From the NCBI GenBank assembly GCA_029978325.1, contig JAPOJR010000004.1:245-54152 (forward strand): a DNA stretch of 53,908 nucleotides, written 5' to 3'. A model generated the notes under the pieces. That model did not search any database. It was given only the letters and a program-made list of their open reading frames with translations, and was not told the DNA's origin. Shown here piece by piece: positions 25,737 to 41,480 of this stretch (within the stretch, counting starts at the first letter, position 1; each line of letters begins with the position of its first letter). The DNA is from Alphaproteobacteria bacterium (GTDB lineage: Bacteria; Pseudomonadota; Alphaproteobacteria; Bin95). Position numbers and translations under genes: made by a program.

Positions 25737-25755
25737 TCCATGTGAGTGTGAAGCG

Positions 25756-27132: not shown

Positions 27133-27205
27133 GGGGCTTTTCACATGCGTGGGTTTGGGGGATGCTGGCGCCAGCCAATGATCCAACCTTGAGGACGCCC
27201 ATTCC

Positions 27206-28144
27206 ATGACCATTCTCGTTGTCGGCGGCGCCGGCTTTATCGGCCGCCGCATGATCCCGCTTCTCGTTGCGCGCGGTGAGAAGATCGTTTGTGCCGACAT
27301 CAACTTCTCCCTGGCGCAGCACATTTTCGAGCCGCTGGGCGATGCGGTGCGCATGGTTCGGGCGGACGTCACCCAATTCGACGACATGGTTCGGCTGGTG
27401 CACGAGGCGAAGCCGAAGACGCTGATGAACCTCAGCTATTTCATCGGCTCCGACATGCCGCCGCATGTGGCGACCAAGCTGAACGTGGTCGGCATGGACA
27501 ACTGCTTCGAAGCAGCGCGGCTTGGCGGCGTGCAGCATACGGTCTTCGCCTCGTCGCTGGCGGTCAGCGGCCAGCAGAAGAATTTCGGCGAGCGTCTGGT
27601 GAACGAAGACGATCCGAAATACGGCACGCTGCAATACGCCTTCAACAAGATCTTTAACGAGTTCCAGGCGCAGGACTACCGCGAGAAATACGGGATGACT
27701 ATCACTTGCGTCAGGCCCGCGAACGTCACCGGGCCGGACAAGGTGGATGGCTCCATCGATCACGTCCGCTGCATGGTGCTGCCGGCGCGCGGCCAGCCGG
27801 TCAGCTTCCCCTATGCCGATGCGACGCGCTGCCCGATCCATGTGGACGACATCGCCGAGGTCTTTGCCCGCGTTGCCACCAAGGACAAGCCGAAGCATAC
27901 CATCTATAACAGCGGCGGCCACACGATCAGCATGGGCGACCTCGCCAAGTTGGTGAAGGAGTTCCTGCCGGACGCGAAAATCACGTTCGAGCACGAGACG
28001 GGCGGCAAGGATGCCTCCGGCAACTATCTGATCGACAATTCGCGGCTGGTCGAGGAGTTCGAGCTGCAATACCCGCCGTTCCGGAACCGCGTGCGGCAGA
28101 TCATCAACACAGTGCGCCGCGAAGAGGGCCTGCCGGAGGTCTGA
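27206..28144 (+). CDS. NAD-dependent epimerase/dehydratase (extended SDR)
   Basis: GGAGFIG, FASSLAV, YAFNK (YxxxK), PIHVDDIA. Confidence 0.88.
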   Translation: MTILVVGGAGFIGRRMIPLLVARGEKIVCADINFSLAQHIFEPLGDAVRMVRADVTQFDDMVRLVHEAKPKTLMNLSYFIGSDMPPHVATKLNVVGMDNCFEAARLGGVQHTVFASSLAVSGQQKNFGERLVNEDDPKYGTLQYAFNKIFNEFQAQDYREKYGMTITCVRPANVTGPDKVDGSIDHVRCMVLPARGQPVSFPYADATRCPIHVDDIAEVFARVATKDKPKHTIYNSGGHTISMGDLAKLVKEFLPDAKITFEHETGGKDASGNYLIDNSRLVEEFELQYPPFRNRVRQIINTVRREEGLPEV

Positions 28145-28189: not shown

Positions 28190-28933
28190 CTACCGCGGCC
28201 GCGCGCCGGCGTGGCGGATTTTGTCCTCCAGCACGCAATAGAGGATGGTCATCAGATAGCGCGGGCCGAGCTTGACGATGTTGAACTTGGACTCGCCGCC
28301 TTCACGGTCGCGCCAGCCATTCGGGACGACCTTGAACGTGGCGCCACGCTGCACCGCCTTGATCGACATTTCGATGGTCAGGTTGAAATCGGCCGAAACC
28401 AAGGGCTGGATGCTGTCCAGAACATCGCGGCGGAAGCCTTTGAAGCCATTAGTGTAGTCGTCATACGCCCGGCCGGCGGCCCAGGCGATCAGGCGGTTGC
28501 CCAGCCGGTTGAGGACCCGTTTGACCGGCGGATAACCCTGGACCCGTTCCGGATTGGAGAAGCGCGTGCCGAAGGCGCAGCCATAGCCTTCTTCCAGAAT
28601 GGCGCGGCCGTAGGCGACGATATCCTCCGGCAGGTCGGAGCCGTCGGCCATCGCAACCACGACGGCTTGCCCCCGCGTCGCCGCCAGCGCCGCCTTGACC
28701 GCCATGCCATAGCCGCCGGGGCCGGTGTTCTTGACCGGGCGCACGCCGGGAAACCGCGCGGCCAGTTCCTGCAATACCTTCCAGGTGTTGTCGCGGGACG
28801 CATCGTCGGCGATGACGATTTCCCAAGTCCAGCCGGTTGGCTCGAACGCCGCCACCATGGCCTCTACCGTGGCGACGATGGTGCTTTCCTCGTTGTAGGC
28901 CGGCACCGCTATGGAGAGTTGCACCTCGCTCAT
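28190..28933 (-). CDS. GT2 glycosyltransferase, polyprenyl-phosphate glycosyltransferase (Dpm1-like, soluble)
   Basis: VPAYNEE, IADDASRDNT, GGYGMAVKA, AMADGSD, FGTRF, DYTNGFKGFR, WRDREGGESKF. Confidence 0.88.
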   Translation of the reverse strand: MSEVQLSIAVPAYNEESTIVATVEAMVAAFEPTGWTWEIVIADDASRDNTWKVLQELAARFPGVRPVKNTGPGGYGMAVKAALAATRGQAVVVAMADGSDLPEDIVAYGRAILEEGYGCAFGTRFSNPERVQGYPPVKRVLNRLGNRLIAWAAGRAYDDYTNGFKGFRRDVLDSIQPLVSADFNLTIEMSIKAVQRGATFKVVPNGWRDREGGESKFNIVKLGPRYLMTILYCVLEDKIRHAGARPR

Positions 28934-29751
28934 GCCGCCGCCGCTATCGGGTAATGGGCGCGGGCAAATGCAACCGCCTGGGTGACGGCGGCAACGGGGT
29001 TTTCGGCGCGGCGCATCTCGATAGAGGCCCAGCCGTCATATCCACTGGCCGCGATGGCCTTTCCGAAGGCAGTGTGGTGCATTTTCGGGTCCGAGAGGTC
29101 GCCGAGCTGCGGCTCGGTGATGTGAACGTGGCTGATGATGTCGACGGCGTCGCGGATGGCGTCCGTGGCCTGGTCACCCGCCATTTCGGTGCAGGCGATG
29201 TCCAGGTGCAGGCGCACGCCGGGATGGTCGACCCTGCGGACGACGGCGGCCGCCTCCGACCAGCGGGTCATGAAGGTACAGGCATAGGCCGGCGGGTTCG
29301 CTTCCAGTCCCAGCACCACGCCATGATCGGCGCAAACCGCGCCTATGCGGCGGAACACGGCGGCAGCTTGCTCTATTGCCGCTTCCGGAGAAAGCGCGCC
29401 CGGATCGCGGTTGCGGGGCGAGCCGAACACCAATGTCCGCGCGCCGAATGCGGCGGCCACTGCCGAGACCTCGCCAATGTGCGCGATCAGCGCCGCGACT
29501 GAGGCCTCTTCACCGAACACCTGCAGGTCGGGACGGCCGAACAGGATGGCTTGCAGCGCCGGCACGGCAAAGCCGGCGTCGGCCAGTCGCTGGGCTTCGG
29601 CTTTCGCGGCGGCGACCGACATGCCCTGCCAATCCGGCCAGAATTTGGTCGGCGCGATCTCTACGCCATGCACCCCACCCTCGCGGAGAGCGGCCAGCAC
29701 GGCGGCGTCCTCGGGCGCATCCCAGGCGATGTTGGAGACAGCCAGTTTCAT
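28930..29751 (-). CDS. sugar phosphate isomerase/epimerase (AP endonuclease 2 TIM barrel)
   Basis: MKLAVSNIAW, GVEIAP, LVFGSPRNR, and metal ligands in GLEANP, LHLD, HVHITEP, SIEM. Confidence 0.85.
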   Translation of the reverse strand: MKLAVSNIAWDAPEDAAVLAALREGGVHGVEIAPTKFWPDWQGMSVAAAKAEAQRLADAGFAVPALQAILFGRPDLQVFGEEASVAALIAHIGEVSAVAAAFGARTLVFGSPRNRDPGALSPEAAIEQAAAVFRRIGAVCADHGVVLGLEANPPAYACTFMTRWSEAAAVVRRVDHPGVRLHLDIACTEMAGDQATDAIRDAVDIISHVHITEPQLGDLSDPKMHHTAFGKAIAASGYDGWASIEMRRAENPVAAVTQAVAFARAHYPIAAAA

Positions 29752-29765
29752 AAAGATTTTCTCCG

Positions 29766-30608
29766 TCACGCGGCCATGGCCGGCCCGGCTTCCTGGGCCG
29801 AACCGTTGCGCCAGGATTCGATGAACCGGCCCATGCGCGCCAGGACGCATTGCTTGGCCTCGATATAGCCGCTGGGCGCGCCGGCTCCGGCGAACACCGC
29901 GCCATGCCGGGTGCGGAAGTCATAGGCGCCGATCGGCGCAGCGTCCCAGCCGACGCGCTTGCCGGGGAAATACGCATCGATGATTTCCGACGTCGCCACC
30001 GGCTCCGTTACCAGGTGCACCAGATCCAGGCCGGCGGCTTGCGCGGTCTGAATGTCGTCCCACAATCTGGTAAGGTCATAGTACTGAAAGCTGCTGGCCG
30101 GATTGATCTTGTCCAGGATGTTGTCGGTCAGCAGATCGTAGATCACATTCTTGCGCAGACCAGGGCCGAACAGGCCGGGCAGGCGCACGATCAAAGGATT
30201 GTCGAACTGCACCCGGAAGGCGTCTTCGAGCGCCAGGCGGTTGCGGCCATAGGCATGGTTATCGACGGCATGGCAGTCCGCGGCCTCATCCAGGCCGACG
30301 CCGGGGGGCACGGCGTCGATGGTGGAGATCAGGACCGCCTGCTTGGCTTTGACGGACTGCATCGCCTGCAACGCGCGCTCAATGCCTTGCCAGTCCGCCT
30401 CAGGCTCCTTGTTCGCCCACCATTTCTTGGCCTGAGCGCCGGCGAACACCAGAAGGTCGAAGGATTGGCCGGCGATTTCCTCGATATTCTTGGAATTGTA
30501 GATCGACCCGAACGGCGCTTGCGAGCGCAGGTTCGAGCCGACGAAGCCGGTATAGCCGACCAGCGCGCAACGCAGCGGCCGGCTGGAAGAAGCAGAGGCG
30601 GATGGCAT
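29766..30608 (-). CDS. atypical SDR / NAD-dependent epimerase-dehydratase family protein
   Basis: ALVGYTGFVGSNL Rossmann motif, KWWAN, ISTID, YGRNR (YxxxR), VRLPGLFG. Confidence 0.8.
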   Translation of the reverse strand: MPSASASSSRPLRCALVGYTGFVGSNLRSQAPFGSIYNSKNIEEIAGQSFDLLVFAGAQAKKWWANKEPEADWQGIERALQAMQSVKAKQAVLISTIDAVPPGVGLDEAADCHAVDNHAYGRNRLALEDAFRVQFDNPLIVRLPGLFGPGLRKNVIYDLLTDNILDKINPASSFQYYDLTRLWDDIQTAQAAGLDLVHLVTEPVATSEIIDAYFPGKRVGWDAAPIGAYDFRTRHGAVFAGAGAPSGYIEAKQCVLARMGRFIESWRNGSAQEAGPAMAA

Positions 30609-30645
30609 AGGTCTTACGCGCTCCTTAGGATTGACCCGGTTGGCG

Positions 30646-31068
30646 TCAGCCGTTCTGTGGGGTCGGGCGGAAAACGATGAACCGGCTGGTGGAATAGTTC
30701 CAAACATAGGTTGCCGCTAGCGAGGCGATCTTGGCCGGGATCGGCCCGATCAACCCGACCAACAGCCAGATGACGGCGGTTGAAATGCCCAGGCCGATGC
30801 TGTTCAGTCCGGCATAGACCGCGAACTGCTTTGCCGTAACCGGCTTTTCGATGTCGGCGAACGTCCAGAACCTGTTCAAGAGGAAGCTGCTGATAATCGC
30901 CAGTCCGTAAGAGATGATATTGGCGGCGACCGGCGGAAGCGCGAGGCCATAGACCAGGCCCGCGAACATCACGACGTCCAGTCCCGCATTGAACGCGCCG
31001 ACCAGCGCGAATTTCAGCGGCTGCGGGATCGCCGCATTCAGCCGCGCAACCTCTGCGATCAGCGGCAC
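30646..31068 (-). CDS. GtrA family polyprenyl-phosphate-sugar flippase
   Basis: About 4 TM segments, KFALVGAFN...D, AANIISY, FLLNRFWTF, AKI...WNY...SRFIVF. Confidence 0.9.
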   Translation of the reverse strand: MPLIAEVARLNAAIPQPLKFALVGAFNAGLDVVMFAGLVYGLALPPVAANIISYGLAIISSFLLNRFWTFADIEKPVTAKQFAVYAGLNSIGLGISTAVIWLLVGLIGPIPAKIASLAATYVWNYSTSRFIVFRPTPQNG

Positions 31069-31072
31069 GGCG

Positions 31073-32218
31073 TCAGGCTTTCGGGTCAGCGGGTTGATCG
31101 GAGGCAGGGGCTGCCGCTTGCTCTGCGCCGACGTTGCCGCGGCTGATGACGTTCAATGTATTATCATAGGCCAGCGATTTGCTGTGGGTGTGCCGAGCCA
31201 GATAATAGAGCGGGTGGTTGGCTGTCCCTTCCAGCACCTGCAGCAGGTATTCGCTCATCACCGCCAACACCAGGGTGATGAAGAAGAACAGGCCTGAGAT
31301 TTGCAGCGACAGCGAGGTCCATCCCGGCGCGACGGTCTCGGAGAACAGCCAATAGCCGATGACATAGAGCGAATAGAGCATGGTCAGGCCGCTGGCCCCC
31401 AACGCCAGAAGCGAGACGGCGCGCAACGGTGTCACGGAAACCGCAAGGGTCAACGACACTGCCCGCGCCGCCAGAGATACCATCCGTCGGATGCTCGACC
31501 GGTTTTTGCCGCGGGCCCGACCAGCAATCCCGGGATATTCCCGGTCGTAAACCAGCGTTGCATGTTCAAAGCCAGAGAGCGCCGGCGACAGCATCAGGAT
31601 ACGGTGTCGGTTGGTCGGCTTCAGCATGAAATTCAGCACCGCCCGGCTGACCAAACGGCAACTGGACGCGGCAATCGGCACGTCGATGTCCTTGGCCCGC
31701 GCGACAAATTCCAAAAACCTGTTGGTCAGAACATTGTCGAGCCCGATCCCCTCCACCCGCTCACGCGGCAGGGCATAGACGACATCGGCGCCACCCAAGG
31801 CCCGCGCTGTCATCGCCGGCACAAGCTCCGGCTGGTCGAGGCGAGGGTCGAGGATAATAACGAAGTCGCCGATAGCATGTTCTAATCCGGCCACCACCGC
31901 CACGTCAGCGCCGCGTTGGCTGGAAAGGCCCAGCAAGACCGTGCCCGGGATCGTGTCCTGAGCCTGCAATACCCGTGCGACCGTGTTATCGCGCGACGCA
32001 TCGTCGACGATGATCACCTCATAGTGGTCGAACGTCTGCCGCAGGGTCGCCGACAGGCGTTCCAAATACGGCAGAATATAGTCGGCGGCATCCGATACCA
32101 CGATAACGACGCTGGGCAGGGTCTCGCGCAGACGCTTTTGCATTGGACTGTCGGCCAGAGCCGCTGTTGCTGCTGCAAGCGTGTCGATCGACGACCACGT
32201 CGGATTCGAAGTGGACAT
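31073..32218 (-). CDS. GT2 glycosyltransferase, GtrB/ArnC-like with two C-terminal TM helices
   Basis: YEVIIVDDASRDNT, AGLEHAIGDFVIILD, RLVSRAV, VTPLR, APGWTSL, VMSEYL. Start taken at MSTSNPT. Confidence 0.85.
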   Translation of the reverse strand: MSTSNPTWSSIDTLAAATAALADSPMQKRLRETLPSVVIVVSDAADYILPYLERLSATLRQTFDHYEVIIVDDASRDNTVARVLQAQDTIPGTVLLGLSSQRGADVAVVAGLEHAIGDFVIILDPRLDQPELVPAMTARALGGADVVYALPRERVEGIGLDNVLTNRFLEFVARAKDIDVPIAASSCRLVSRAVLNFMLKPTNRHRILMLSPALSGFEHATLVYDREYPGIAGRARGKNRSSIRRMVSLAARAVSLTLAVSVTPLRAVSLLALGASGLTMLYSLYVIGYWLFSETVAPGWTSLSLQISGLFFFITLVLAVMSEYLLQVLEGTANHPLYYLARHTHSKSLAYDNTLNVISRGNVGAEQAAAPASDQPADPKA

Positions 32219-32223
32219 GCTGG

Positions 32224-33486
32224 TCAATTCCCTAGAGCGGCGGCGGGTGCGGAAACCGCTGAGCGGTTGGCGGCGGAGCCTTTGTTCGGCGGTGTGGCCA
32301 GGCCCAGCGTCTGTTCGATGAACTCGAAAATATCGAAAATGTTGTCGACCTTTCCGCCCATGACGGAGACCAGACGGCCCATGCGATCGTCCCGATGCAT
32401 CAGGATCGGCCGCGCGTCGTCCACCTGAGTGCCGACTGCCAGCGTCTTGATGTCGATCAGTGTATCTGCAAGCGGCACCCCGGCGAGCGCGGGCATATAG
32501 CGGGCTGCGTCGCGCACCATCCAGGCAAACCGCGAGCGGCCGAATTTGCCGCCGCCGGTTTCCAGGTAGCGCCGCAAAATCGTTGTCGGACAGCGCTCGG
32601 TAAAGCCGAATGGCAGCTCGCCGTCCTCGTTCCATTTGGCATGGTGGGTGTAGCGCACATGGGTCAGGGAATGCAGGCCCAGCGCTGGAAATGGCATGGC
32701 GGAAAAAAAGGGGCCATCCATGACGGTAACGCCGCGCCGGGCCAGGGGCGGCGGCGGTTTGAACAACGCTACCTCGGCGATTTGGTGAACCAGGCCGAAC
32801 CGGTCGCTCACCGGCTCATGTCCGGCATGCTCGCCATAGGCGTGATTCAGGTCGGCATAAGTGCAGTTGAACACCCAATCCGCCACCAATTGCTGGTCGG
32901 TGTCGGTCGAGACCAGCAACGGGGAAGCCCGATGATCGGCCAGAGGCTCGACCGAGATCACCTGGTGGCCAGTCAGGACATCGACATCCAGGTGGCGTAA
33001 TTCCGCGACATGGTGCTGGCGCAGAATCGAAGCGTTGAACGCGGGCTCTTCAACCTCGTACACCTTTTCGATCAGGCGGTGGTCGAACAGGGCGGCGTCC
33101 TCCGCCGGCGCTGGCCGCATCGGCATGCCGACGACCTGGCCGAAGCGTTCGAAATGCGCCGGGCTGATCTTGGAGCCATTGCGGGCGATGGCGTAGAGCG
33201 CGCGGAACTCGCTGAACACAGCCTCGGGAAACACGCTGCGGAACGGGTCGAGGTTAACGCGGCTGCGCCGCGCCGTGCGGAAACTGCGTGGGTAGTGATA
33301 GCCATTGTGCAGGCGGGCCTGATTGACGAACGAAGCGCGGGTCATCAACTCCGCCTCGCGCTCCACCAAAGCGACCCGCCAGCCGCGGCGTGCGAGATAA
33401 CCGGCGATCGCGCATCCATAAAAGCCGCCGCCGACCATGATGGCGTCGTAACGTTCGGCGCGCGGGGTTCGAATTGCTGCTTCCAT
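32224..33486 (-). CDS. FAD-dependent oxidoreductase (DAO-like)
   Basis: VGGGFYG, ASFVNQARLHNGYHYPRS, FNCTY, TVMDGPFFS, HSLTHV, GGKVD. Confidence 0.85.
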   Translation of the reverse strand: MEAAIRTPRAERYDAIMVGGGFYGCAIAGYLARRGWRVALVEREAELMTRASFVNQARLHNGYHYPRSFRTARRSRVNLDPFRSVFPEAVFSEFRALYAIARNGSKISPAHFERFGQVVGMPMRPAPAEDAALFDHRLIEKVYEVEEPAFNASILRQHHVAELRHLDVDVLTGHQVISVEPLADHRASPLLVSTDTDQQLVADWVFNCTYADLNHAYGEHAGHEPVSDRFGLVHQIAEVALFKPPPPLARRGVTVMDGPFFSAMPFPALGLHSLTHVRYTHHAKWNEDGELPFGFTERCPTTILRRYLETGGGKFGRSRFAWMVRDAARYMPALAGVPLADTLIDIKTLAVGTQVDDARPILMHRDDRMGRLVSVMGGKVDNIFDIFEFIEQTLGLATPPNKGSAANRSAVSAPAAALGN

Positions 33487-33490
33487 GGTG

Positions 33491-35143
33491 TCAGCGATGC
33501 GTCGGTGTCTGGCCTTGCGGAAGTCCCGGGGGAGGATCGAGGCGCAGTAGCAGATGGCGAGGGCTACGGCGCACTAAGGTTGTGCCGGCAGGCGGGTCCC
33601 AAGTAAAGGGGGCGGCTGATCCAACAACCGAAATGTACCGATCTGTCACGTCTTGATTGCCATGTTCCCGCTCGAAATCCCGCAGTTTCGTCACCAGGGC
33701 AGAGAGGTCTGCCGGGGTTTCCACCTCGAATGGGTTCTGGCCCTGCAGGTCTTTGATCGCCTGGAACGCCGGTGCAATGTTCAGCGGCTGCTTGTGGGGG
33801 TCTGTATAGATCGCAGGCACAAAGCGCGGCTTGTCGATGGCGGCATAGGAGGCGACATGTTTGATCGACGGCTTCCAGGCGGCGCGCGCTTCCGCAGAGT
33901 TCGGCATCAGTACCGGCAGGGGACCGTGCATCGCCTTGAAGATCATCGCGCCTTCGGGCAGTTCGGCGAAGTCGGCGATTATGGGCGTGATCCGGCTTTC
34001 CCATTTCGTCCAGACCATGGTCAGGCCGACGCTGCGCGAGATGGCCAGCACAGCAATGGTTGCGACCAGCACCAAAGTCAGAGCGTCCCGGCGCAGTCCG
34101 GTCGCCGGCCGGATATCTATGGCGGCAATCGCGACCATAACGGCGGCGGGCGCAAGGCGCACATTGCCGAAGTCCGACCCCAACATATAGCGCGGCAACA
34201 GCACCGAGGCTGCCGCTAACGTCAAGGCGCCCAGAAGAACCGGCACGGAAATTTGCAGCCGGCCGCTCCACCACGCCCAACAGAACAACCCACCTGCCAG
34301 GCCGGCGGCGAGCAGGTCGAGCATCGGAACGGAACTGGCGAGGGCAAACACCGGGCCATAGATCAGGTTGGCGATGCGGAAGCCGCCGTATCGGAACCCG
34401 CCATCCAGGTCGTTGCTGGTGGGCGACAGCGCCAGGAACAGGGCTATCGCCGCGAGAAACGGCAGGGCCGCAATCGCCAGACGGACTGCGGCGGGTATCA
34501 GCGCTGCGAGGCTATCGGCCGACCCGCGCGCGGTCGTCCACGCGCGGGCGATCTCCGCCATGCCGACAATGACGGCGAAGACGCCGAACGCCTCCATATG
34601 GCAGAGCATCAGCACGCACGCCGCGATAAACCCAAACGGCAACACCCAGGGCCGATCGCGATACGCAAGCCATCCGGCAGCAGCCAACAGCGCTAGCCCG
34701 GTGCCGAACAGATAGTTGAGGAACCCATAGCTGACGATGCCATTATAGACAGGCACCAAAGCCAGCAGAGGCCAAAGGCTGAGGCGGCCATGCGCTGCCC
34801 GGTGCAAGGCTGCGGCTCCGGCTAGCTGCAGCACCAGCGCCAATCCTACGAAGATGCGCACCGCCAGTTCAGGCCCAGTTATCTGGGCGATGGCTAGTCC
34901 CACTGCATCCAGCGCAATGTTCGGCAACAGCCAGTTTCCAGGCTCATAAAACCGGCTGAAGATCGGCCCGTCGATATCGGCCAGAATGAAGATGCGCGCC
35001 AAATGGAACGGGTAGTCGTTGAGCGGCAGATAGCGCACCGCTGCAATCGGCAGGACAACCGACAAAAGCGCAAGCCCCAGTAGGCACCACCAGATGGTAC
35101 TGGATTGGCTGCTTGACGGTCGTGGAAACGATGTGGCTGTCAC
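33491..35143 (-). CDS. polytopic membrane protein, putative GT-C-fold glycosyltransferase
   Basis: N-terminal TM followed by an external loop LPLNDYPFHLAR (Asp), YGFLNY, about 10-11 TM segments and a C-terminal soluble domain. Lies in an operon with GtrA and GT2 genes. Confidence 0.65.
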   Translation of the reverse strand: MTATSFPRPSSSQSSTIWWCLLGLALLSVVLPIAAVRYLPLNDYPFHLARIFILADIDGPIFSRFYEPGNWLLPNIALDAVGLAIAQITGPELAVRIFVGLALVLQLAGAAALHRAAHGRLSLWPLLALVPVYNGIVSYGFLNYLFGTGLALLAAAGWLAYRDRPWVLPFGFIAACVLMLCHMEAFGVFAVIVGMAEIARAWTTARGSADSLAALIPAAVRLAIAALPFLAAIALFLALSPTSNDLDGGFRYGGFRIANLIYGPVFALASSVPMLDLLAAGLAGGLFCWAWWSGRLQISVPVLLGALTLAAASVLLPRYMLGSDFGNVRLAPAAVMVAIAAIDIRPATGLRRDALTLVLVATIAVLAISRSVGLTMVWTKWESRITPIIADFAELPEGAMIFKAMHGPLPVLMPNSAEARAAWKPSIKHVASYAAIDKPRFVPAIYTDPHKQPLNIAPAFQAIKDLQGQNPFEVETPADLSALVTKLRDFEREHGNQDVTDRYISVVGSAAPFTWDPPAGTTLVRRSPRHLLLRLDPPPGLPQGQTPTHR

Positions 35144-35153
35144 AGCATTCGCC

Positions 35154-35588
35154 TCAACTGTTCCGGGCCAGGCTGGCGCAAAGCCGCGCTTCCGTCAGCG
35201 CCAGCACCCATCCGTCGACGGTGACGGTTTTGCCGTCCGAAAAATCCAACCGGACCTTGCGGGAAACCAGTTCCGTCATGCGTTTGCGCTCAGCTGAGGA
35301 GGTGAGAATACGGGGCCACCGCGGTCGGCCGGGCAAGGGGGCCAAGACATGGCCCGGCACGGTGTCCAGGATCAATTGCCCCATCCGGGCCGCGGCCGCC
35401 CGGTCGGGAAAGCACCATGCGGGGTCAAGCCCCAATGGCCAATCTGTAGCCGGATGTTGCGGTGCTACGGCATAGCCTCTGCCGCTCCACAAAGCGGCGA
35501 CCGTGGCCAAGCTTGCGGCCAAGACCGAACGCCTGCGGAGAGCCACCGCCGACGGGATGCTTGCGCGCGTCTGTTTTCCGAATTCCAT
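35154..35588 (-). CDS. small twin-arginine (Tat) signal protein, partner of the GMC oxidoreductase
   Basis: LRRRSVLAASLATVAALW...GYA signal-like N-terminus and C-terminal DFSDGKTVTVDGWVLALTEARLCA. Starts 4 bp after the GMC stop. Confidence 0.7.
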   Translation of the reverse strand: MEFGKQTRASIPSAVALRRRSVLAASLATVAALWSGRGYAVAPQHPATDWPLGLDPAWCFPDRAAAARMGQLILDTVPGHVLAPLPGRPRWPRILTSSAERKRMTELVSRKVRLDFSDGKTVTVDGWVLALTEARLCASLARNS

Positions 35589-35592
35589 GATG

Positions 35593-37236
35593 TCAGCCTT
35601 GTTTGGTCAAGCGTTCGGCCAGATGCTCTGCCTGTCGCAGCGCCAACGCCACAATCGTCAATGTCGGATTGGCATAGCCGGAAGTCGGGAACAATGCGCT
35701 GCCGCAGACGTACAGGTTTTCGGTCGAATGGACCCGCCCATTGGCGTCGGTAACGCCCAGCGCCGGATCGTTGGCCATACGGGCGGTGCCCATGTGATGC
35801 CGGCTGCCGGTCAGCCGCGCCGGCCATCGCTTGTCGAGTTCGGTTGCACCCTCCAGCAGTTGCATCCGACCGATGCCGAGCCGGCCCACTTCTTCGGCCA
35901 ATAATGCCAAAGCGCGGCTGGCGGTGCGCCGGTCCCGGTTCTCCATCCGCCAGTCCAATACGATGCGTCGCTGGCCGAACGCGTCGACTGCGCCGGCGGA
36001 CTGGTCCAGGCTTACCCGGCTTTCGGGATTGGGAGTTTGCTCGAAATTCAAATCGACCCAGGCGCCGACAATCGGGTCGTCGGGCTTTGGCGGGTCTACA
36101 AATGGACTGTCCTTCGAGCCGAAGGCGGCCCGATAGCCTCTGTCGGCCAATTGGTCCAGGTCGCCGAAAATATTGCCAATATGGTTCCACAGTCCGTCGG
36201 GCAACCGGCCTTCGCTGGCCGCATCGGCCAATTGCCTGGCGGAATCGAGGCCCAATTGCGAGCGGTTGGAGGGGGCCAGCCAGATGCGGAAGCCGCCGAT
36301 GTCATGCAAAGCCCTGGCTTTCGGCGTCGACGCCAATGTCCCGAATATTGTAGCGCCCGGCAGGCTGTTTTCTTGGAAATACAGCGGCAGGTTCGTATCG
36401 GGGCGGGTGAACGAAATATAGGCGCTGCGGGCAATCCAGGGGTGATCCTGAAAATACCGCCCCACGAGGTCGTGCTCATTGCCCGCGCCGGCAGGATGGA
36501 CCGCGGTCGACTGCAACAGTAGGCGCGGCGTTTCCAGGCCACCGGTGGCGACGACGACCACTCGACCGTTGACGGCAAAACGCCGGCCGTCGGCCGTGCG
36601 GGCGGCTACACCGGCTATGGCCTTGCGGCGTTGGTTAGCGTCGCTGTCCGCCGCTGGTGTTAGCGACAGGACGGATGCGTCGAGCAGGACGGTGACGTTG
36701 GCGGCAGCCGCAAGCGCATCGGCATACCGCTCGCCAAAGTGGGTTGGCGGGCTGATCTGGAATACGGCGGTGGTGAGCTTGTCGGGGTTGGTGGCCAGAG
36801 CCTTCAGCGCCTCGCCGCCTTTCTGGCCTTGCCAGAACTCCAACGCATCGAAACGAGCGGGCCCTAGCTCGCAGATAGCGGCGGCCTTTTCGTAATAGCG
36901 GTCCAGGTGAGCGCGATCGAATGGCCAGGGGTGGGCTGTCTCGAAATCGACCGGCTCCAGGGGCCGGCACCAGCCGGACCAATGGTTGGTTGTGCCGCCA
37001 AAATACCGCAGCCGGGTGACGTCCAACGGCTCGGTCGGAATTCCGGCCAGGCGGCCCTTGTATAGGTCCTGCATTGCGTCGTCATAGGAATCGCCGCCGC
37101 TTTCCAGCAGCACGATTTTCAGGCCGCTGTCTTTCAGCGCGAGGGCCATTGAAATTCCAGCGGCCCCGGCCCCAATGATCACCACATCAGCGTCGATCTG
37201 ATCACCATCCGAAACAGTACTGGCGCGGTGCAGCAT
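35593..37236 (-). CDS. GMC-family FAD oxidoreductase
   Basis: IIGAGAAG, LLESG, GGTTNHWSG, GGLETPRLLL, VGRYFQDHP, HHMGTARM, ANPTLTI. No signal peptide. Confidence 0.9.
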   Translation of the reverse strand: MLHRASTVSDGDQIDADVVIIGAGAAGISMALALKDSGLKIVLLESGGDSYDDAMQDLYKGRLAGIPTEPLDVTRLRYFGGTTNHWSGWCRPLEPVDFETAHPWPFDRAHLDRYYEKAAAICELGPARFDALEFWQGQKGGEALKALATNPDKLTTAVFQISPPTHFGERYADALAAAANVTVLLDASVLSLTPAADSDANQRRKAIAGVAARTADGRRFAVNGRVVVVATGGLETPRLLLQSTAVHPAGAGNEHDLVGRYFQDHPWIARSAYISFTRPDTNLPLYFQENSLPGATIFGTLASTPKARALHDIGGFRIWLAPSNRSQLGLDSARQLADAASEGRLPDGLWNHIGNIFGDLDQLADRGYRAAFGSKDSPFVDPPKPDDPIVGAWVDLNFEQTPNPESRVSLDQSAGAVDAFGQRRIVLDWRMENRDRRTASRALALLAEEVGRLGIGRMQLLEGATELDKRWPARLTGSRHHMGTARMANDPALGVTDANGRVHSTENLYVCGSALFPTSGYANPTLTIVALALRQAEHLAERLTKQG

Positions 37237-37469
37237 CCGCTTGCCTTTCAAACCATCGTCCGCAGTTCACGACCGCGTTAGCATATTTATGGTTTTGATG
37301 ACACACCTTCCATTGGACACTAGACCTAGCCGGACGGCGCCGGCAGTATCGCGCCGCTTTCGTGCGGGCGTTGAAACGTCGGCGTTGCATTGACCGCAAC
37401 ATTCCGCGAGAAAGCCGAATGCCTCCCTGCGCTTCTCCCGGCGCGGCTTATGCGGGGCGCGGGTCCTAT

Positions 37470-38930
37470 ATGGCGCGGAGTCTTGGCTTGTCTACTTCAG
37501 TCACACCAACGAAGAGCGCAGATGACCAAGCCCGGCCATTGTGCGTGGATTTGGATGGCACGCTGATCGCTTCGGATACGCTGGTTGAATCGGCCATCGG
37601 CACGGCCGTACGCGGGCCGCGTTACATAATCGGCCTGCTGGGCAGCCTGCGGCGGGGGCGGCCGGCGCTCAAGGCGTATGCCGCCGATCACCATATTCCG
37701 GATGTGACGGTGTTGCCGTACCGTGAAGATGTGCTGGCGGCGCTGCGGGATGCCAAGGCAGCGGGGCGAAAACTGGTGTTGGTGACCGCGGCCGACCACC
37801 GCATCGCCGATGCGGTAGCCGCGCACCTCGCCCTGTTCGACGAGGTCATAGCCACGCGTGACGGCGTCAACTTGAAAGGCGAAGCCAAGGCTGCGGCACT
37901 GGTCGACCGGTTTGGCGAGGGCGGCTTCGACTATGTGGGCGACACTCGCGCCGATCTTTCGGTCTGGGCCAAAGCGAAAGATGCCTGGGTGGTCGAGGAT
38001 GGAATTAGCGCGGGCGCGATCAGCAACGCCATTCGCAAAGTGCCGGCCCGCCGTTTCCCGGTGACCAAGCCAGGATTGCGCGCCTGGGTATCCGGCGCGC
38101 GCTTGTACCAATGGGTCAAGAACGTGCTGGTATTTGTGCCGGTGGTGGCCTCTGGCGCAATGTTCTCGGCCGAAGCGATGCTGCTTGGCATCGTCGCATT
38201 CGTGTGTTTCGGCCTATTTGCCTCCGGCACCTATATGTTGAACGATCTGTCGGACCTGGACGCGGACCGCCACCACCCGCGCAAGCGCCGGCGCGCCTTC
38301 GCTTCGGGCAGGATCGCGCCGGTTCGCGGCCTTTTTGCAGGGCCCGGGCTTATGGCGCTCGCGCTGGTGATTGCGTTTGCCGTCAAGCCGTTGTTCGCAG
38401 CCGTCCTGCTGGGCTATGGCGTGCTGACCATCTGCTACACAATGTTCCTCAAGACCCGGCCGTTGGTGGATGTCTTTGCGCTGGCTGCCTTGTATTGCGT
38501 GCGGATCGTCGGCGGGGCTGCGGCAACGGCGATCGTACCGTCGATCTGGTTGTTGTCGTTTTCGAGCTTTCTGTTTTTGGCGTTGGCATTGCTCAAACGG
38601 TTCAACGAGTTATCGCGCGTCGGCGCGGGCTCCGGACGGCGCGGTTATGCCGAGGGCGAGCATATGCTGTTGATGGTCTTTGGCGTCGCCAGCACGTTTT
38701 CCTCGGTGATCGTGTTCGCGCTCTACGCGGAGTCGCAAGCGGCCGGCCTGTTGTACAGCCAGCGCGAGTTGTTGTGGGGAATCGTCCCGCTGCTGTTGTT
38801 CTGGCAGAGCCGGCTATGGTTGTCTGCCTGGCGCGGCTATGTCGATGACGATCCCATTGTCTACGCGGCCAAGGACTGGGTCAGTTGGATTGCAATTGCC
38901 CTTTCCGGTGTACTTTTCCTGGCTAGCTAA
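37470..38930 (+). CDS. HAD phosphatase + UbiA-family fusion: polyprenyl-phosphate phosphoribosyltransferase (DPPR synthase/NoeC-like)
   Basis: HAD motifs CVDLDGTL, VTAA, NLKGEAK, YVGDTRAD. UbiA part QWVKNVLVF, NDLSDLDADRHHPRKRRRAFASG, LKRFNEL, DDDPI. Alternative TTG start at 37488. Confidence 0.9.
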   Translation: MARSLGLSTSVTPTKSADDQARPLCVDLDGTLIASDTLVESAIGTAVRGPRYIIGLLGSLRRGRPALKAYAADHHIPDVTVLPYREDVLAALRDAKAAGRKLVLVTAADHRIADAVAAHLALFDEVIATRDGVNLKGEAKAAALVDRFGEGGFDYVGDTRADLSVWAKAKDAWVVEDGISAGAISNAIRKVPARRFPVTKPGLRAWVSGARLYQWVKNVLVFVPVVASGAMFSAEAMLLGIVAFVCFGLFASGTYMLNDLSDLDADRHHPRKRRRAFASGRIAPVRGLFAGPGLMALALVIAFAVKPLFAAVLLGYGVLTICYTMFLKTRPLVDVFALAALYCVRIVGGAAATAIVPSIWLLSFSSFLFLALALLKRFNELSRVGAGSGRRGYAEGEHMLLMVFGVASTFSSVIVFALYAESQAAGLLYSQRELLWGIVPLLLFWQSRLWLSAWRGYVDDDPIVYAAKDWVSWIAIALSGVLFLAS

Positions 38931-38955
38931 TACCTGACCCCGCGGAGATGTAATC

Positions 38956-39330
38956 ATGTCGCCAACCATGCTCGCTCTGATTTTGGTCACGGTTACGATG
39001 TCGGCCTGTGCCCAGCTGGCGTTGAAGTTGGGCATGAAAGGGCCAGGCACTACGGCTGGACTAGCCGAGGGCGGCCTGACGGCGGCGTTGAGCGTTGCGC
39101 TGAACCCCTGGATCATATTGGGGCTCAGTATTTATGGCCTGAGCGTGGTGCTTTGGCTTTGGGTGCTGTCGAAGGTCGAGCTTTCAGTCGCCTATCCGTT
39201 CGTCGGCGTCAGTTTTCTGATCACCATGGCGTTCGGTGCGTGGCTGCTGCACGAGGAAATTACGGTCGGCCGTTTGATTGGGACTGTTTTGATCGCCATC
39301 GGTTGCGTGTTGGTGGCGCGCTCAGCTTAG
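38956..39330 (+). CDS. SMR/DMT small membrane protein (ArnE/ArnF-like flippase candidate)
   Basis: 4 TM segments, AQLALKLG, WLWVLSKVELSVAYP, LLHEEIT. RBS GGAG. Confidence 0.85.
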   Translation: MSPTMLALILVTVTMSACAQLALKLGMKGPGTTAGLAEGGLTAALSVALNPWIILGLSIYGLSVVLWLWVLSKVELSVAYPFVGVSFLITMAFGAWLLHEEITVGRLIGTVLIAIGCVLVARSA

Positions 39331-40104
39331 GTTGACGCTGATCGCCCCCAAAACGCCGAAGTCGGCGGTGACGCGGTCGCCGGGCCCAATCTCCAGCGGC
39401 GGGACGGACGTGCCGGTGGTGACCAGTTCACCCGCGTTAGCGCCAATGCCGAGGCCGGACAACTCGTTCACCAGCCAGGCCAGCGCGATGCGCGGGTCGC
39501 CCAAAACATTGCCGCCGGAGCCCTGGCGGTCGTAGCGGCCTGCGACATGGCCGGTAACCGTGTGCCGGGACAGGTCCAGCGCCCGCCAATCCGCCGCCAC
39601 CGCTTTGCCTACCACCAACTCGCGCGCGCACGCAGCTTCTGCAATCAGCGACGGGCCGCCGGCTTTGTCGAATACGGCGAAGCGCGAATCCGGCAGTTCC
39701 AGCGCCAGATGCAACTCGCCGACGGCAGCCATGACTTCAGCCACGCTATAGGCGTTGGTCCGCGCCGGCAGGTCGCGGGCAAAGCGGAACGCGAATTCCG
39801 GTTCGCAGACGCGCATGCGGTTCGTCGCGACAGAAACGGTTGCGCCATCTTCAAGCAGGAATTCCGCCAGCAGCCGCCCGGCCAGCGGCCCGTCGACGCC
39901 GATATGCTTTTGCCCGGCCGCGCTGGTGGCAGCGATTTTCCAGCCCGCTACAGGCTTTTGCGAGTATTTCGCCAATTCAGTCTGGATCGCATAGCCGTCC
40001 GCGCGGCTTGCCGGCCGCAACTCGGGCGGCAGGCTTTCCATCACGGTGCCGTCCTGCCAATGGCGCCAGATCAACGCGCCGGCTTCTGCTGTTTTGGTCA
40101 GCAT
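39322..40104 (-). CDS. 2-keto-4-pentenoate hydratase / FAH family protein
   Basis: YAIQ, GWKIAATS, CEPEFAFR, LELPDSR, VLGDPRIALAWLVNEL, VTTGT, ADFG. Confidence 0.88.
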   Translation of the reverse strand: MLTKTAEAGALIWRHWQDGTVMESLPPELRPASRADGYAIQTELAKYSQKPVAGWKIAATSAAGQKHIGVDGPLAGRLLAEFLLEDGATVSVATNRMRVCEPEFAFRFARDLPARTNAYSVAEVMAAVGELHLALELPDSRFAVFDKAGGPSLIAEAACARELVVGKAVAADWRALDLSRHTVTGHVAGRYDRQGSGGNVLGDPRIALAWLVNELSGLGIGANAGELVTTGTSVPPLEIGPGDRVTADFGVLGAISVNLS

Positions 40105-40154
40105 GCAAAAAGTCCCATAGCTAATAATCGAAGCTGCCGCCTGGTCACCCGCAG

Positions 40155-41480
40155 TCACGCAGTTGGCTCTGTCTCTAAGGTGTCGGCCAGCAAAACCGCG
40201 GCGACGAGGTCTCCCGTCACATTAACTACCGTGCGGCACATGTCGAGTAGCCGGTCGACGCCGAGAATGATTACCATGCCTTCGACCGGAATCTTCATGC
40301 TGGTCGCGACGCTGATCAGAATGGCGATACTGACCCCCGGCGTGCCGGGCGCGCCGATGCTGGAGGCGACCAGCGTTCCGGTGACGACCAGCGTCTGCGT
40401 GACGGTCAGCTCAATTCCAGCCAATTGCGCCAGAAACAGAATCGCGACGGCCTGATATAGCGCCGTGCCGGCCATATTCATCGTCGCGCCCAGCGGCACC
40501 ACCAGGTTGGCTATGTTCTGAGGCACGCCCAATTGGCGAGAGGTTTGGATCGTCACCGGCATGACCGCTGACGAACTGGAGGTCGAAAATGCCAGCAACA
40601 GATTGCCGCCCGCGATCCTGACAAACCGCAGCGGGTTGATCGAGCCGATTAGCCCGGCAATCGCCAGATAGAGAACCAACAGCAGGCCGAGGCCGAACAA
40701 CACCGTCAACACATACCCTGAAATGCCGACCAGGGTCTCAACGCCGACCCGCATCACCAGTTGCGCCATCAGGCCGAAAACGGCAACCGGCGCCAGAAAC
40801 ATGGCCCATTTGACGATGTTCATGGCGATCGAAAGCAGGGCGTCCATCAGCGCCAGGAAAGGCGCCACCCGTGCGCGGTCGACCTGGGTTACGGAGACGC
40901 CGACCAGAAGGGCCAGTACAACCACCGCCAGCATGTCGCCCTGGACGATGGACGCCGTTGGGTTGGTCGGCAGGATATCGGCAATGAGGTGCGGCAGGTG
41001 CTTGAGCGGTTGTGTGGCGGCGTCGCCGGCCGCAGCAGAAGGATTTGCGCCGGCCGGGACAGCCGCAAATGTCCGCAACGGCGCGCCGGGCTGGAGCCAT
41101 TTCGCCAGCGCAACGCCCAAGGCGGCCGCCGCGCTTGTCGTCACCAGAATAAAGGCAGCCAGTCTCAGGCCAACGGCCCGCAACTCAGCGCCAGAGCCGG
41201 CTCCGTTCAGACCGCCGACGATTGAGGCAAAGATCAGGGGAACCAGTACCATGGCGATCAGGGCCAGGAATATCTGGCCCGGCAACGCGAGCCAGAGGCC
41301 GATCAATTCCGACATCTCGGGCGATAGCCAGCCTGTGCTATCGCTCAGCGCCAGCCCCAGGCCGAAGCCCAGAACCATCCCGGCAATAACCTGGGCCCAC
41401 AAGCGCGTGCGGATCCAGGCGCGCAGCTTGAAGCGTTGGCTGGCGACCTGGATCGTAGTTTCTGGAGCAGGTTGGCTCAT
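40155..41480 (-). CDS. dicarboxylate/amino acid:cation symporter (DAACS, GltP/DctA family)
   Basis: AFSTSSSSAVMP, PLGATMNMAGTA, SIGAPGTPG, GVDRLLDMCRTVVNVTGD. Confidence 0.93.
   Translation of the reverse strand: MSQPAPETTIQVASQRFKLRAWIRTRLWAQVIAGMVLGFGLGLALSDSTGWLSPEMSELIGLWLALPGQIFLALIAMVLVPLIFASIVGGLNGAGSGAELRAVGLRLAAFILVTTSAAAALGVALAKWLQPGAPLRTFAAVPAGANPSAAAGDAATQPLKHLPHLIADILPTNPTASIVQGDMLAVVVLALLVGVSVTQVDRARVAPFLALMDALLSIAMNIVKWAMFLAPVAVFGLMAQLVMRVGVETLVGISGYVLTVLFGLGLLLVLYLAIAGLIGSINPLRFVRIAGGNLLLAFSTSSSSAVMPVTIQTSRQLGVPQNIANLVVPLGATMNMAGTALYQAVAILFLAQLAGIELTVTQTLVVTGTLVASSIGAPGTPGVSIAILISVATSMKIPVEGMVIILGVDRLLDMCRTVVNVTGDLVAAVLLADTLETEPTA

Follow-up and report, generated by a model that had tools for sequence, protein, structure and literature searches.

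The locus described here, eleven genes at positions 28190 to 39330 of a 53,908-nucleotide stretch of an alphaproteobacterial genome (assembly GCA_029978325.1, contig JAPOJR010000004.1; the whole stretch is called the window below), has its closest described counterparts among systems that make, edit or transfer sugars carried on a membrane lipid. Gtr systems (GtrA, GtrB, GtrC) and Arn systems (ArnC, ArnD, ArnE/F, ArnT) share with it a plan of a transmembrane (TM)-anchored family 2 glycosyltransferase (GT2), a small flippase and a periplasmic GT-C-fold transferase. The DprE1/DprE2 pair follows a logic that we also propose here, in which a flavoenzyme first creates a ketone on a lipid-linked sugar by oxidising a hydroxyl, and a short-chain dehydrogenase/reductase (SDR) that depends on NAD(P)H then reduces it. 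To our knowledge, sugars are reshaped on a lipid carrier in few known cases, namely DprE1/DprE2, ArnD, NaxD and Citrobacter ORF13. The last of these belongs to the pentofuranose system of Citrobacter youngae O1/O2 (ORF15, ORF14 and ORF12, with or without the epimerase ORF13). There, ORF15, a HAD phosphatase fused to a UbiA-type phosphoribosyltransferase, converts phosphoribosyl pyrophosphate (PRPP) to ribofuranose linked to polyprenyl phosphate (polyprenyl-P), after which a flippase and a GT-C enzyme (GT136) add the sugar to the O-antigen in the periplasm; auxiliary epimerases, either the classical SDR ORF13 or DprE1/DprE2, diversify the pentose, and lyxofuranose would require two inversions (Kelly et al. 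2024, PMC11127046).

The eleven genes of the window appear to load sugars onto a lipid carrier, to reshape one of them with a trio of redox enzymes and to attach them outside the cytoplasm to a surface molecule. The working model that we favour, and to which we give roughly an even chance of being right, is a composite of three modules that would glycosylate an envelope acceptor on the periplasmic side from polyprenyl-P donors: a GT2-based editing module (M1), a module comprising a GT-C protein of a family that we call A1 and a putatively periplasmic oxidoreductase pair (M2), and a HAD-UbiA arm with its flippase candidate (M3). A bolder proposal, offered tentatively and as possible rather than probable, is that M1 is an undescribed rare-sugar route in which a hexose is edited on polyprenyl phosphate by a fixed trio of a GlpO-like flavoenzyme, a TIM barrel and a YxxxR SDR, that the module is mobile and works with interchangeable GT-Cs, and that in the subset to which the window belongs it is coupled to a GMC oxidoreductase, exported by twin-arginine translocation (Tat), that acts outside the cytoplasm to oxidise either the donor or the sugar once it has been transferred. 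In the open-access literature, the supplementary information of Kelly et al. aside, we found no description of this trio together with a GtrB-like GT2, of the A1 family or of the pairing of GMC/Tat genes with a GT-C; nor did we find a paper there that joins GMC oxidoreductase, GT-C and polyprenyl, and GT136 as a glycosyltransferase family is named there by Kelly et al. alone.

The eleven-gene locus

The genes are listed below, with assignments from Pfam scans (E ≤ 0.01) and NCBIfam scans (E ≤ 0.001).

28190..28933, minus strand: small GT2, 247 aa (PF00535, 86 bits)
28930..29850, minus strand: xylose-isomerase-like TIM barrel (PF01261, AP_endonuc_2, 84.6 bits against a cut-off of 31.1); conserved start probably near 29706
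29766..30707, minus strand: atypical extended SDR, about 270 aa (PF01370, 22.9 bits against a cut-off of 20.9); likely start near 30608
30646..31068, minus strand: GtrA-family small membrane protein, flippase candidate (PF04138, 84.6 bits)
31073..about 32230, minus strand: GtrB/ArnC/PgfS-like GT2 (PF00535, 59 bits)
32224..33486, minus strand: DAO-superfamily FAD oxidoreductase (FADox), 420 aa (PF01266, 61 bits)
33491..35143, minus strand: GT-C-fold protein A1, 550 aa (no Pfam or NCBIfam match; fold from a structure model)
35154..35588, minus strand: small twin-arginine protein, 144 aa (no Pfam or NCBIfam match)
35593..37251, minus strand: GMC oxidoreductase (PF05199, 86.8 bits, and PF00732)
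37362..38930, plus strand: HAD-UbiA fusion (NF006088, 541 bits against a cut-off of 351; HAD part PF12710, 35.7 bits)
38956..39330, plus strand: SMR/EamA-type (ArnE/F-like) protein (PF00892, 33 bits; ArnF model, 44 bits against a cut-off of 99)

Nine genes on the minus strand (28190-37251) thus stand opposite a divergent plus-strand pair (37362-39330). Stop-to-start distances on the minus strand are −4 to 10 bp (−4, 4, 4, 10 and 4), with overlaps when the longest open reading frames (ORFs) are taken. The ORF, Pfam and NCBIfam analyses bore out the eleven genes of the original prediction, with their positions and strands, as well as the content it had read from them, with three proteins that could make polyprenyl-phosphate sugars, two possible flippases and a single GT-C. 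The window is one contig (C320) of a genome of 375 contigs and 3.66 Mb that is rated 88% complete. Pfam scans of the other ORFs in the window gave no wzx-, wzy-, wzm- or wzt-type family, as had been claimed for the surroundings of the locus, and the window scans gave no prophage or O-antigen genes; the remaining genes serve DNA repair and metabolism of no relation to the locus. That the eleven genes did not come together by chance is clear from the recurrence of the set in other genomes, described below.

Set beside the Citrobacter system, the window shares the catalytic motifs of the HAD-UbiA protein, an adjacent small flippase gene, a GT-C-fold transferase, a polyprenyl-P donor that we predict is likewise used outside the cytoplasm, and optional epimerases acting on the lipid-linked sugar (PMC11127046). 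The two differ in their flippase, which is of the SMR type in the window and a MATE protein in Citrobacter, and in their GT-C, which in the window has no detectable sequence family and is compared by fold class only. The window also has no classical SDR of the ORF13 type and no DprE1/DprE2, and it lies outside an O-antigen cluster. Its two GT2 genes, its flavoenzyme/TIM/SDR trio and its putatively periplasmic GMC pair are not among the components described in the sections of that paper on which we draw (PMC11127046).

The likeness to Gtr-type systems is one of architecture and not of orthology, because all equivalog scores fall below their cut-offs; for Arn, they fall far below (ArnC, 60 against 529; ArnF, 44 against 99). 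The proposed scheme has an ArnD-like feature in that modification would take place on the lipid-bound sugar, by oxidation, epimerisation and reduction instead of deformylation. ArnT is the nearest solved structure to A1 (Z 16.7), but A1 matches no Pfam or NCBIfam family, unlike the ArnT family, which we take to be PMT_2. And unlike Gtr loci, the locus lies outside a prophage or O-antigen cluster, although M1 does sit in O-antigen or exopolysaccharide clusters elsewhere.

A putative sugar-editing module that recurs without UbiA

M1 recurs in genomes that have no UbiA-type synthase and in plasmid loci that show no UbiA gene, and its redox enzymes therefore go with the GT2 and not with UbiA. When 301 evenly sampled Alphaproteobacteria were searched with the atypical SDR, six other genomes were positive. 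Four of these (G182, G285, G129 and G262; loci L115-L118) hold the GtrB-like GT2, FADox, SDR and TIM-barrel genes together, usually accompanied by a further small GT2 and by either GtrA or SMR, amid rmlABCD, GDP-mannose 4,6-dehydratase, an ABC-2 (Wzm/Wzt-type) transporter, EpsG and polytopic proteins unrelated to A1. In G176 and G194 the same four-gene unit lies at contig ends. The best score of the HAD-UbiA model NF006088 was at most 48.7 bits, the level of housekeeping UbiA, in G129, G176, G182, G194 and G285, and all of these except G176 also lack the A1 GT-C. G176, a genome rated 100% complete, has the entire eight-gene cassette spread over two contig ends (L113 and L119), with no HAD-UbiA. 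In a separate sample of 401 genomes across the phylum, the SDR was present in five including this one, with the TIM barrel adjacent in all four of the others.

The plasmid loci show the same association. On plasmid p2 of Azospirillum sp. TSA2s, the five M1 genes lie in an O-antigen-like cluster in which we saw no UbiA gene. Plasmid pA22P4 of Psychrobacter sp. ANT_P22 (L121, NZ_MN657058.1), a 10.8-kb plasmid of mobilisable type, carries replication and mobilisation genes alone apart from a cargo at 2324-8624, which consists of SDR, TIM barrel, SMR, FADox, GtrB-like GT2 and a further GT2, together with a 479-aa protein with at least six TM segments, and no UbiA gene. We found nothing on this plasmid in the open-access literature. 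Its GtrB-like GT2 and small GT2 share one open frame (5392-7185), the first part of which is missing from the distributed gene table. Among all loci examined there was no instance of the trio with a UbiA synthase but without a GtrB-like GT2, and GMC is missing from the M1-only loci. Taken from the gene associations, the toolkit more likely edits a sugar made by the GT2 than replaces DprE1/DprE2 on phosphoribose.

The predicted activities of the M1 proteins fit such a route. The GtrB-like GT2 aligns end to end with PgfS (5-301 of 308) and ArnC (9-310 of 316), in both cases below the cut-offs, has predicted C-terminal TM segments and is linked to FADox in all cassette and M1-only loci; it is a candidate polyprenyl-phosphate hexosyltransferase that would open M1. 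The small GT2 has no predicted TM helix and is Dpm1/AglJ-like, its best NCBIfam matches being AglJ, dolichyl-phosphate-hexose transferase and ArnC, all far under the cut-offs. Its orthologues in cassette loci are 40-61% identical, and it is a candidate second polyprenyl-phosphate glycosyltransferase. The GtrA protein has three predicted hydrophobic stretches. Its place between the GT2 and the SDR was seen in the window alone: it is missing there in L012 and L014, L006 and L007 end earlier, and a GtrA gene is present in the M1-only locus L118.

FADox is a candidate oxidase of a hydroxyl on a lipid-linked sugar. A profile of 13 orthologues had as its best PDB match the L-alpha-glycerophosphate oxidase 4x9m (E 1.6e-9, over the N-terminal 200 residues), and a single-sequence PDB search gave a match limited to the FAD-binding N-terminus. 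The blocks GGGFYG, NQARxHxGxHYPR, DGPFFSxMPFP, HVRYTxH and GGKIDNxxD are invariant. L-alpha-glycerophosphate oxidase oxidises a secondary alcohol beside a phosphate-bearing carbon and, purely by analogy, the same geometry would fit the C2 hydroxyl of a glycosyl-1-phosphate. Atlas searches returned generic DAO and DUF6080 clusters alone. We also considered a role like that of UDP-galactopyranose mutase and dropped it; the match to 3hdq was marginal (E 0.0037, residues 7-47) and there is no GLF domain.

For the TIM barrel, sequence points to a metal-dependent epimerase or isomerase resembling ketose 3-epimerases. Its best PDB sequence matches are a ketose 3-epimerase (8yeb, E 8e-6) and the 3-keto-D-glucoside 4-epimerase YcjR (6wn6, about 1e-5), and the blocks LEPNP, HLDxAC, HxH and SxEMRR, which bear the Glu/Asp/His/Glu positions that we take to be metal ligands, are conserved in nine of nine sequences. 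In YcjS/YcjR-type epimerisation of 3-keto-glycosides, as in ketose 3-epimerases, a metal-dependent xylose-isomerase-like TIM barrel inverts the carbon beside a carbonyl, between an oxidation and a reduction. The similarity of the window protein to these enzymes is weak (E ~1e-5). Its substrate would be lipid-linked and its pathway biosynthetic, whereas theirs are catabolic and start from glycosides or free sugars. The TIM-barrel gene adjoins the atypical SDR in every locus examined.

The SDR gave no NCBIfam match and no single-sequence PDB match; a profile search of the PDB returned the UDP-GlcA 4-epimerase 6zl6 weakly (E 1e-3). A GxTGFVG motif and a Ser-Thr pair are conserved and the Tyr is invariant, and in 12 of 12 sequences Arg stands at the Lys position (YGxxR for YxxxK), a replacement that makes it atypical among extended SDRs. 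It is the candidate keto-reductase of the trio. Compared with DprE1/DprE2, then, the flavoenzyme is of the DAO/GlpO and not the VAO type, the SDR is an extended YxxxR protein and not the classical DprE2 type, a third enzyme (the TIM barrel) is always present, and the linkage is to a nucleotide-sugar GT2 instead of a PRPP-dependent synthase. FADox, TIM barrel and SDR have neither a signal peptide nor a TM segment, and so should act in the cytoplasm.

From these likenesses we infer the following chemistry for M1. The membrane GT2 would make a polyprenyl-P-hexose from a nucleotide sugar, FADox would turn one ring hydroxyl, probably at C2 or C3, into a ketone, the metal-dependent TIM barrel would invert the neighbouring stereocentre through an enediolate, and the SDR would then reduce the ketone. 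The outcome would be a rare hexose epimer that is still lipid-bound and that GtrA would flip.

Conservation of the cassette and of the UbiA arm

When the window proteins were compared with the six-frame ORFs of 80 A1 loci, the seven larger genes (GMC, A1, FADox, GtrB-like GT2, SDR, TIM barrel and small GT2) were found in one locus in L014 (Glaciecola sp. MF2-115), L015, L016, L018, L021 and L023. In L009 (a Methylomarinum metagenome-assembled genome, MAG), L012 (a Micropepsaceae MAG) and G176 (L113 and L119), the set is interrupted solely by contig ends. Three orders are fixed, GT-C-FADox-GT2, SDR-TIM-(small GT2) and GMC-small protein, and A1 is contiguous and co-directional with its partners in the first of these in every cassette locus. 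Hosts of the cassette span Alpha- and Gammaproteobacteria, the latter with two genera.

The two arms of the locus also travel together, as the original prediction required of a single system. HAD-UbiA lies within 10 kb of A1 in 6 of the 80 loci (L006, L007, L013, L014, L034 and L049), and the arms adjoin in the window, L006, L007 and L014, and probably in L108/L009, two contig ends that look contiguous. Beyond adjacency, NF006088 scored above its cut-off in all ten cassette genomes first tested, after which 20 further A1 genomes and G176 were examined. A close A1 orthologue occurs in 23 genomes, 20 of which have HAD-UbiA (the exceptions are G319, G321 and G176), and HAD-UbiA is present in 17 of the 18 genomes with both A1 and M1 (M1 being scored by its SDR marker, or by adjacent M1 genes in the case of G009 and G010), against a background of 23 among the 301 sampled Alphaproteobacteria, this genome included (~7%); these co-occurrence counts overstate independence, many of the compared genomes being kin. 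Nine genomes with distant paralogues of A1 alone include five with HAD-UbiA and none with the SDR. In a further Micropepsaceae MAG (G315, contig C8), the atypical SDR (2-355) and HAD-UbiA (6341-7741) lie ~6 kb apart.

This association is what gives substance to the idea, put forward in the original prediction, that the redox enzymes stand in for DprE1/DprE2 on the UbiA product. FADox, SDR and TIM barrel would then convert polyprenyl-P-ribofuranose to an arabino-, xylo- or never-observed lyxo-form or to a keto-pentose, and the single GT-C would transfer it. In the window the arms lie side by side in divergent orientation, DprE1/DprE2 use the same oxidise-then-reduce logic, and in the Citrobacter work auxiliary epimerases do diversify the pentose, with two inversions needed for lyxofuranose (PMC11127046). 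Searches for DprE1 and DprE2 are in keeping with the idea as well. The ALO domain of the VAO-type DprE1 (PF04030) has no match in this 88%-complete genome, whose five FAD_binding_4 (PF01565) proteins are GlcD, GlcE, two GlcD-like proteins and MurB; a DprE1-like protein of Rhizobium phaseoli used as query found nothing at E 1e-5; and Pfam scans found no classical SDR in the locus, while the R. phaseoli SDR hit only generic family members, none above 33% identity and all on other contigs. The predicted lack of a VAO-type DprE1 is thus upheld, with no dprE1/dprE2 pair found elsewhere in the genome. At 88% completeness proof of absence is precluded, but the pattern across related genomes, 10 of 12 of which lack an ALO match, is consistent with it.

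We nevertheless consider the substitution unlikely. Wherever the trio occurs, a GtrB-like GT2 is linked to it. Four sampled genomes have the trio without a DPPR-synthase (DPPRS)-type UbiA (no NF006088 score above 48.7 bits), as do two plasmid loci in which no UbiA gene was seen. G176, 100% complete, keeps the full cassette with no HAD-UbiA. Moreover, most cassette genomes have HAD-UbiA elsewhere, with its own SMR and GT-C-fold protein and no epimerase beside it. These UbiA-less genomes weigh against a stand-in for DprE1/DprE2, and of the two outcomes that had been suggested for the UbiA product, direct transfer of ribofuranose is plausible for the UbiA arm, while an unusual pentose or ketose made by the toolkit fits less well with a toolkit that tracks the GT2.

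The GT-C family A1

The AlphaFold2 model of the 550-aa A1 protein (pLDDT 88, pTM 0.90, 11-12 long helices) shows a GT-C fold, as had been predicted for 33491-35143. All 34 of its best PDB matches in Foldseek are GT-C enzymes (ALG12, ArnT, AftD, OST/PglB, DPY19, AftA/B and Pmt; E 7e-6 to 1e-3). VIA re-alignment to ArnT (5f15) gave Z 16.7 over 412 residues with a root-mean-square deviation of 4.4, and the 45 best VIA entries are all GT-C or PIG-U, the next entry scoring Z 5.5. A block D43-Y-P-x-H47-x-x-R50, directly after the first TM segment (helix 12-35), is invariant in 22 of 22 homologues, with D43 placed like the acidic residue that GT-C enzymes conserve in their first periplasmic loop.

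A1 itself has no match in Pfam or NCBIfam, and 31 homologues are without any precomputed Pfam domain. Yet the family is large: among 1.84 billion representatives, 9738 clusters match at E ≤ 1e-3 and 2467 at E ≤ 1e-30, and 372 places were confirmed in GTDB species genomes, mostly of Alphaproteobacteria. Distant paralogues, below ~32% identity, occur without the set of cassette genes.

The HAD-UbiA arm

M3 is, on sequence, of an already characterised kind, the three-component pentofuranose system of 2024, with its GT-C compared by fold class only. The HAD-UbiA protein scores 132, 122 and 95 bits against DPPRS models, all under the cut-offs, and carries the motifs DLDGT at residue 63 and NDLSDLDAD at residue 294. 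These correspond to residues mutated in C. youngae ORF15, namely the HAD catalytic Asp and the N-D-x-x-D-x-x-x-D loop (PMC11127046). The SMR/EamA-type gene, with four predicted TM segments, starts 25 bp downstream of HAD-UbiA, and SMR homologues follow HAD-UbiA in L104, L106, L107, L108 and L111. By homology to ORF15, the UbiA domain would move ribose-5-phosphate from PRPP to polyprenyl phosphate, the fused HAD domain would strip the 5-phosphate and the SMR protein would flip the predicted product, polyprenyl-P-ribofuranose. As no epimerase of a known type is present, ribofuranose itself is the likely sugar of M3.

The original prediction had singled out the whole locus as an undescribed system. 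That no longer holds for the UbiA arm, because the scheme of HAD-UbiA, small flippase and GT-C is already characterised (PMC11127046). For the rest of the locus we found no description in the open-access literature.

The arm is widespread on plasmids, where 104 records matched HAD-UbiA, 81 of them with at least 80% query coverage. HAD-UbiA with SMR or GtrA and a polytopic protein is a common layout on alphaproteobacterial plasmids, of which two examples were inspected. On a plasmid of Roseomonas marmotae the order is HAD-UbiA-EamA-DUF6798; the second example, from Rhizobium phaseoli, is given below. In phage records, the HAD-UbiA search gave one partial match, to an unannotated 6.6-kb record. 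Plasmid pRphaR650d of Rhizobium phaseoli (L112, 9001-16280) encodes HAD-UbiA, GtrA, an FAD-binding oxidoreductase, an SDR and two hypothetical proteins (562 and 499 aa), and looks like a three-component system of the DprE1/DprE2 type for arabinofuranose. Its proteins show no similarity to the GT-C, flavoenzyme or SDR of the window. In the nearest relative (L006, 6246-9543; GT-C 87% identical, contig name giving ~4x coverage), HAD-UbiA is split into three ORFs and GMC into two, which could be sequencing error or decay.

In several genomes the arm has a candidate transferase of its own. A DUF6080-like membrane protein of 430-490 aa lies beside HAD-UbiA and SMR in L103, L104, L106, L108, L013 and L014, and also occurs in L012 and L019; it was sought with a purpose-built profile, the Pfam DUF6080 model being too insensitive. 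Every significant Foldseek match of its AlphaFold model (pLDDT 76) is a GT-C enzyme (Pmt4, E 1.2e-4, and OST, AftA, DPY19, ALG9/12 and ArnT), and these proteins may be pentofuranosyltransferases. With a GT-C fold next to HAD-UbiA and SMR, those genomes would hold a complete system of the kind described by Kelly et al. beside the cassette, which leaves A1, contiguous with M1, for M1. By the same profile search, no DUF6080-like GT-C was found in this genome, in that of its nearest relative (G011) or in the UbiA-less G176; G312 and G313 were positive.

The alternative is that A1 is primarily a pentofuranosyltransferase acting on the HAD-UbiA product, and hence a new GT-C family for such systems, with the GMC/Tat pair acting there too and M1 an independent Gtr-like side-branch whose product is transferred secondarily by A1 or by an unrecognised transferase. 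In its favour, HAD-UbiA accompanies a close A1 orthologue in 20 genomes out of 23 and distant paralogues in five out of nine, against 23 of 301 in the background. Three genomes (G313, G314 and G316) have A1, GMC and HAD-UbiA with no M1, A1 paralogues stand directly beside HAD-UbiA in L034 and L049, and we found no other GT-C partner for the UbiA arm in this genome. But G176 has A1, GMC and M1 without HAD-UbiA, the contiguity of A1 with FADox and the GtrB-like GT2 holds throughout the cassette loci, and HAD-UbiA comes within 10 kb of A1 in 6 loci of 80 only. Together with the DUF6080-like GT-C that the UbiA arm has elsewhere, these points leave a pentofuranosyltransferase role for A1 improbable in our estimation.

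The GMC oxidoreductase and its twin-arginine partner

The GMC protein is proposed, from its sequence relatives, to be a periplasmic sugar dehydrogenase or oxidase. Its best PDB matches (E 1e-18 to 1e-20) are the catalytic subunit of the Burkholderia FAD-glucose dehydrogenase (6a2u_B, E 3.5e-20) and the large subunit of the Gluconobacter fructose dehydrogenase. Residues HH...N, presumably the catalytic pair of GMC enzymes, are present in columns invariant across 11 of 11 orthologues. In the Burkholderia and Gluconobacter dehydrogenases, the catalytic subunit reaches the periplasm through a small subunit with a Tat signal; the enzymes also carry a Cys-rich 3Fe-4S motif and a cytochrome c subunit. 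The window pair resembles them (the Burkholderia enzyme being of gamma-alpha-beta composition) in combining a GMC protein that has no signal peptide with a neighbouring small twin-arginine protein.

That small protein has the motif LRRRSVL, and the predicted Tat signal is borne out by RR in 9 of 10 orthologues, the tenth having KR. A C-terminal block, DF..G....DGW.L..E...C, is conserved. Its gene lies directly downstream of GMC in every locus, and the pair is always next to the GT-C. Beyond the signal peptide the protein has no detectable similarity to solved chains: a profile search of the PDB gave non-significant matches alone, to Tat signal peptides. We propose that it is the export partner, or 'hitch-hiker' subunit, of GMC. 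The oxidoreductase is read as periplasmic because its solved relatives are Tat-exported, it has no signal of its own and the neighbouring gene has the conserved RR. It differs from those relatives in having no 3Fe-4S Cys cluster (the absence of an Fe-S motif follows from three scattered Cys alone, at 95, 127 and 516), in lacking a cytochrome c subunit, with no cytochrome family in the scans of the locus or window, and in always standing next to a GT-C. 

For M2 we likewise infer that A1 would transfer the M1 sugar to the acceptor and here may also transfer ribofuranose, and that GMC would cross the membrane with its twin-arginine partner and, once in the periplasm, oxidise either the donor or the sugar already transferred. 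We know of no oxidation of a sugar after its transfer in Gtr/Arn-type systems.

Pairs of GMC and xylose-isomerase-like TIM-barrel enzymes occur in the catabolism of 3-keto-glycosides and C-glycosides, and the redox genes could in principle be catabolic, with a periplasmic GMC glycoside 3-dehydrogenase and the TIM barrel degrading glycosides through 3-keto intermediates merely beside unrelated glycosyltransferase genes. Apart from this known pairing, a 3-keto-glucoside epimerase is among the PDB matches of the TIM barrel. Such a role is very improbable. Every locus examined has TIM barrel and SDR next to the two GT2 genes and to flippase genes, GMC does not accompany them in M1-only loci, the pA22P4 cargo has no sugar transporter or kinase, and no sugar-uptake or sugar-kinase family was matched among the ORFs adjoining the locus (24975-28144 and 39322-42767).

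Weighing the three-module model

What we observed directly is protein families, sequence motifs, the GT-C fold, gene linkage and co-occurrence, from which the chemical steps of the model are deduced. Several observations sit badly with the three-module model. HAD-UbiA in 17 of the 18 genomes with A1 and M1, and the adjacency of the arms in five lineages, suggest a functional link that a modular reading leaves unexplained. A1 and GMC occur without M1 in G313, G314 and G316, all HAD-UbiA-positive, and the distant paralogues in L034 and L049 lie directly beside HAD-UbiA, so the A1 family may itself use a ribofuranose donor. For its two or three donors, this genome shows no transferase other than A1. 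The second small GT2 finds no role in the scheme. Finally, GMC has no Fe-S motif and the locus none of the cytochrome subunit of the closest solved relatives. The co-occurrence with UbiA, the M1-less pairing of A1 and GMC, the paralogues beside HAD-UbiA and the position of A1 as sole GT-C are why both the substitution of DprE1/DprE2 by the trio and a pentofuranosyltransferase role for A1 are kept as minority readings, each with a small but real share of our confidence.

Neighbouring genes and variation within the genus

Just upstream of the cluster, 24975-27132 encodes a DedA/VTT-family membrane protein followed by a pyridine-nucleotide-disulfide oxidoreductase (MerA/lipoamide-dehydrogenase-like), and a second pyridine-nucleotide-disulfide oxidoreductase lies at 23256-24782 on the opposite strand. 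The DedA/disulfide-reductase pair was considered as part of the system and dropped, its homologues occurring in no related locus. The same applies to a classical epimerase at 27206-28144, which is generic. On the other side, the minus-strand ORF 39322-40158 encodes a 278-aa protein that has no Pfam match and whose NCBIfam matches, of HpaH/2-oxopent-4-enoate-hydratase-like type, fall short of the cut-offs. The genome has four paralogues of it (30-37% identity) at other places, including one where the same contig begins.

The one other genome of the genus in our sample (G183, 100% complete) has neither HAD-UbiA (E ≤ 1e-50) nor the atypical SDR, and the whole locus may be variable within the genus.

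Implications

O-antigens, lipid A and cell walls are all shaped by glycosylation in the periplasm from lipid-linked donors, which in this way influences serotype, phage sensitivity and antibiotic tolerance. The novelty of the locus is bounded by its HAD-UbiA arm, an instance of the system characterised in 2024 (PMC11127046). For the remainder, a conserved and mobile trio that edits hexoses would, if our reading is true, be a new source of rare sugars and of enzymes for glycoengineering. Editing of a hexose on its carrier would generalise chemistry known on pentofuranoses from DprE1/DprE2 and from a single SDR, and the coupling of a periplasmic GMC dehydrogenase to a GT-C would represent a novel form of envelope-glycan tailoring. 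The A1 family, large and without a model, offers a further return, in that one characterised member would annotate thousands of genes.

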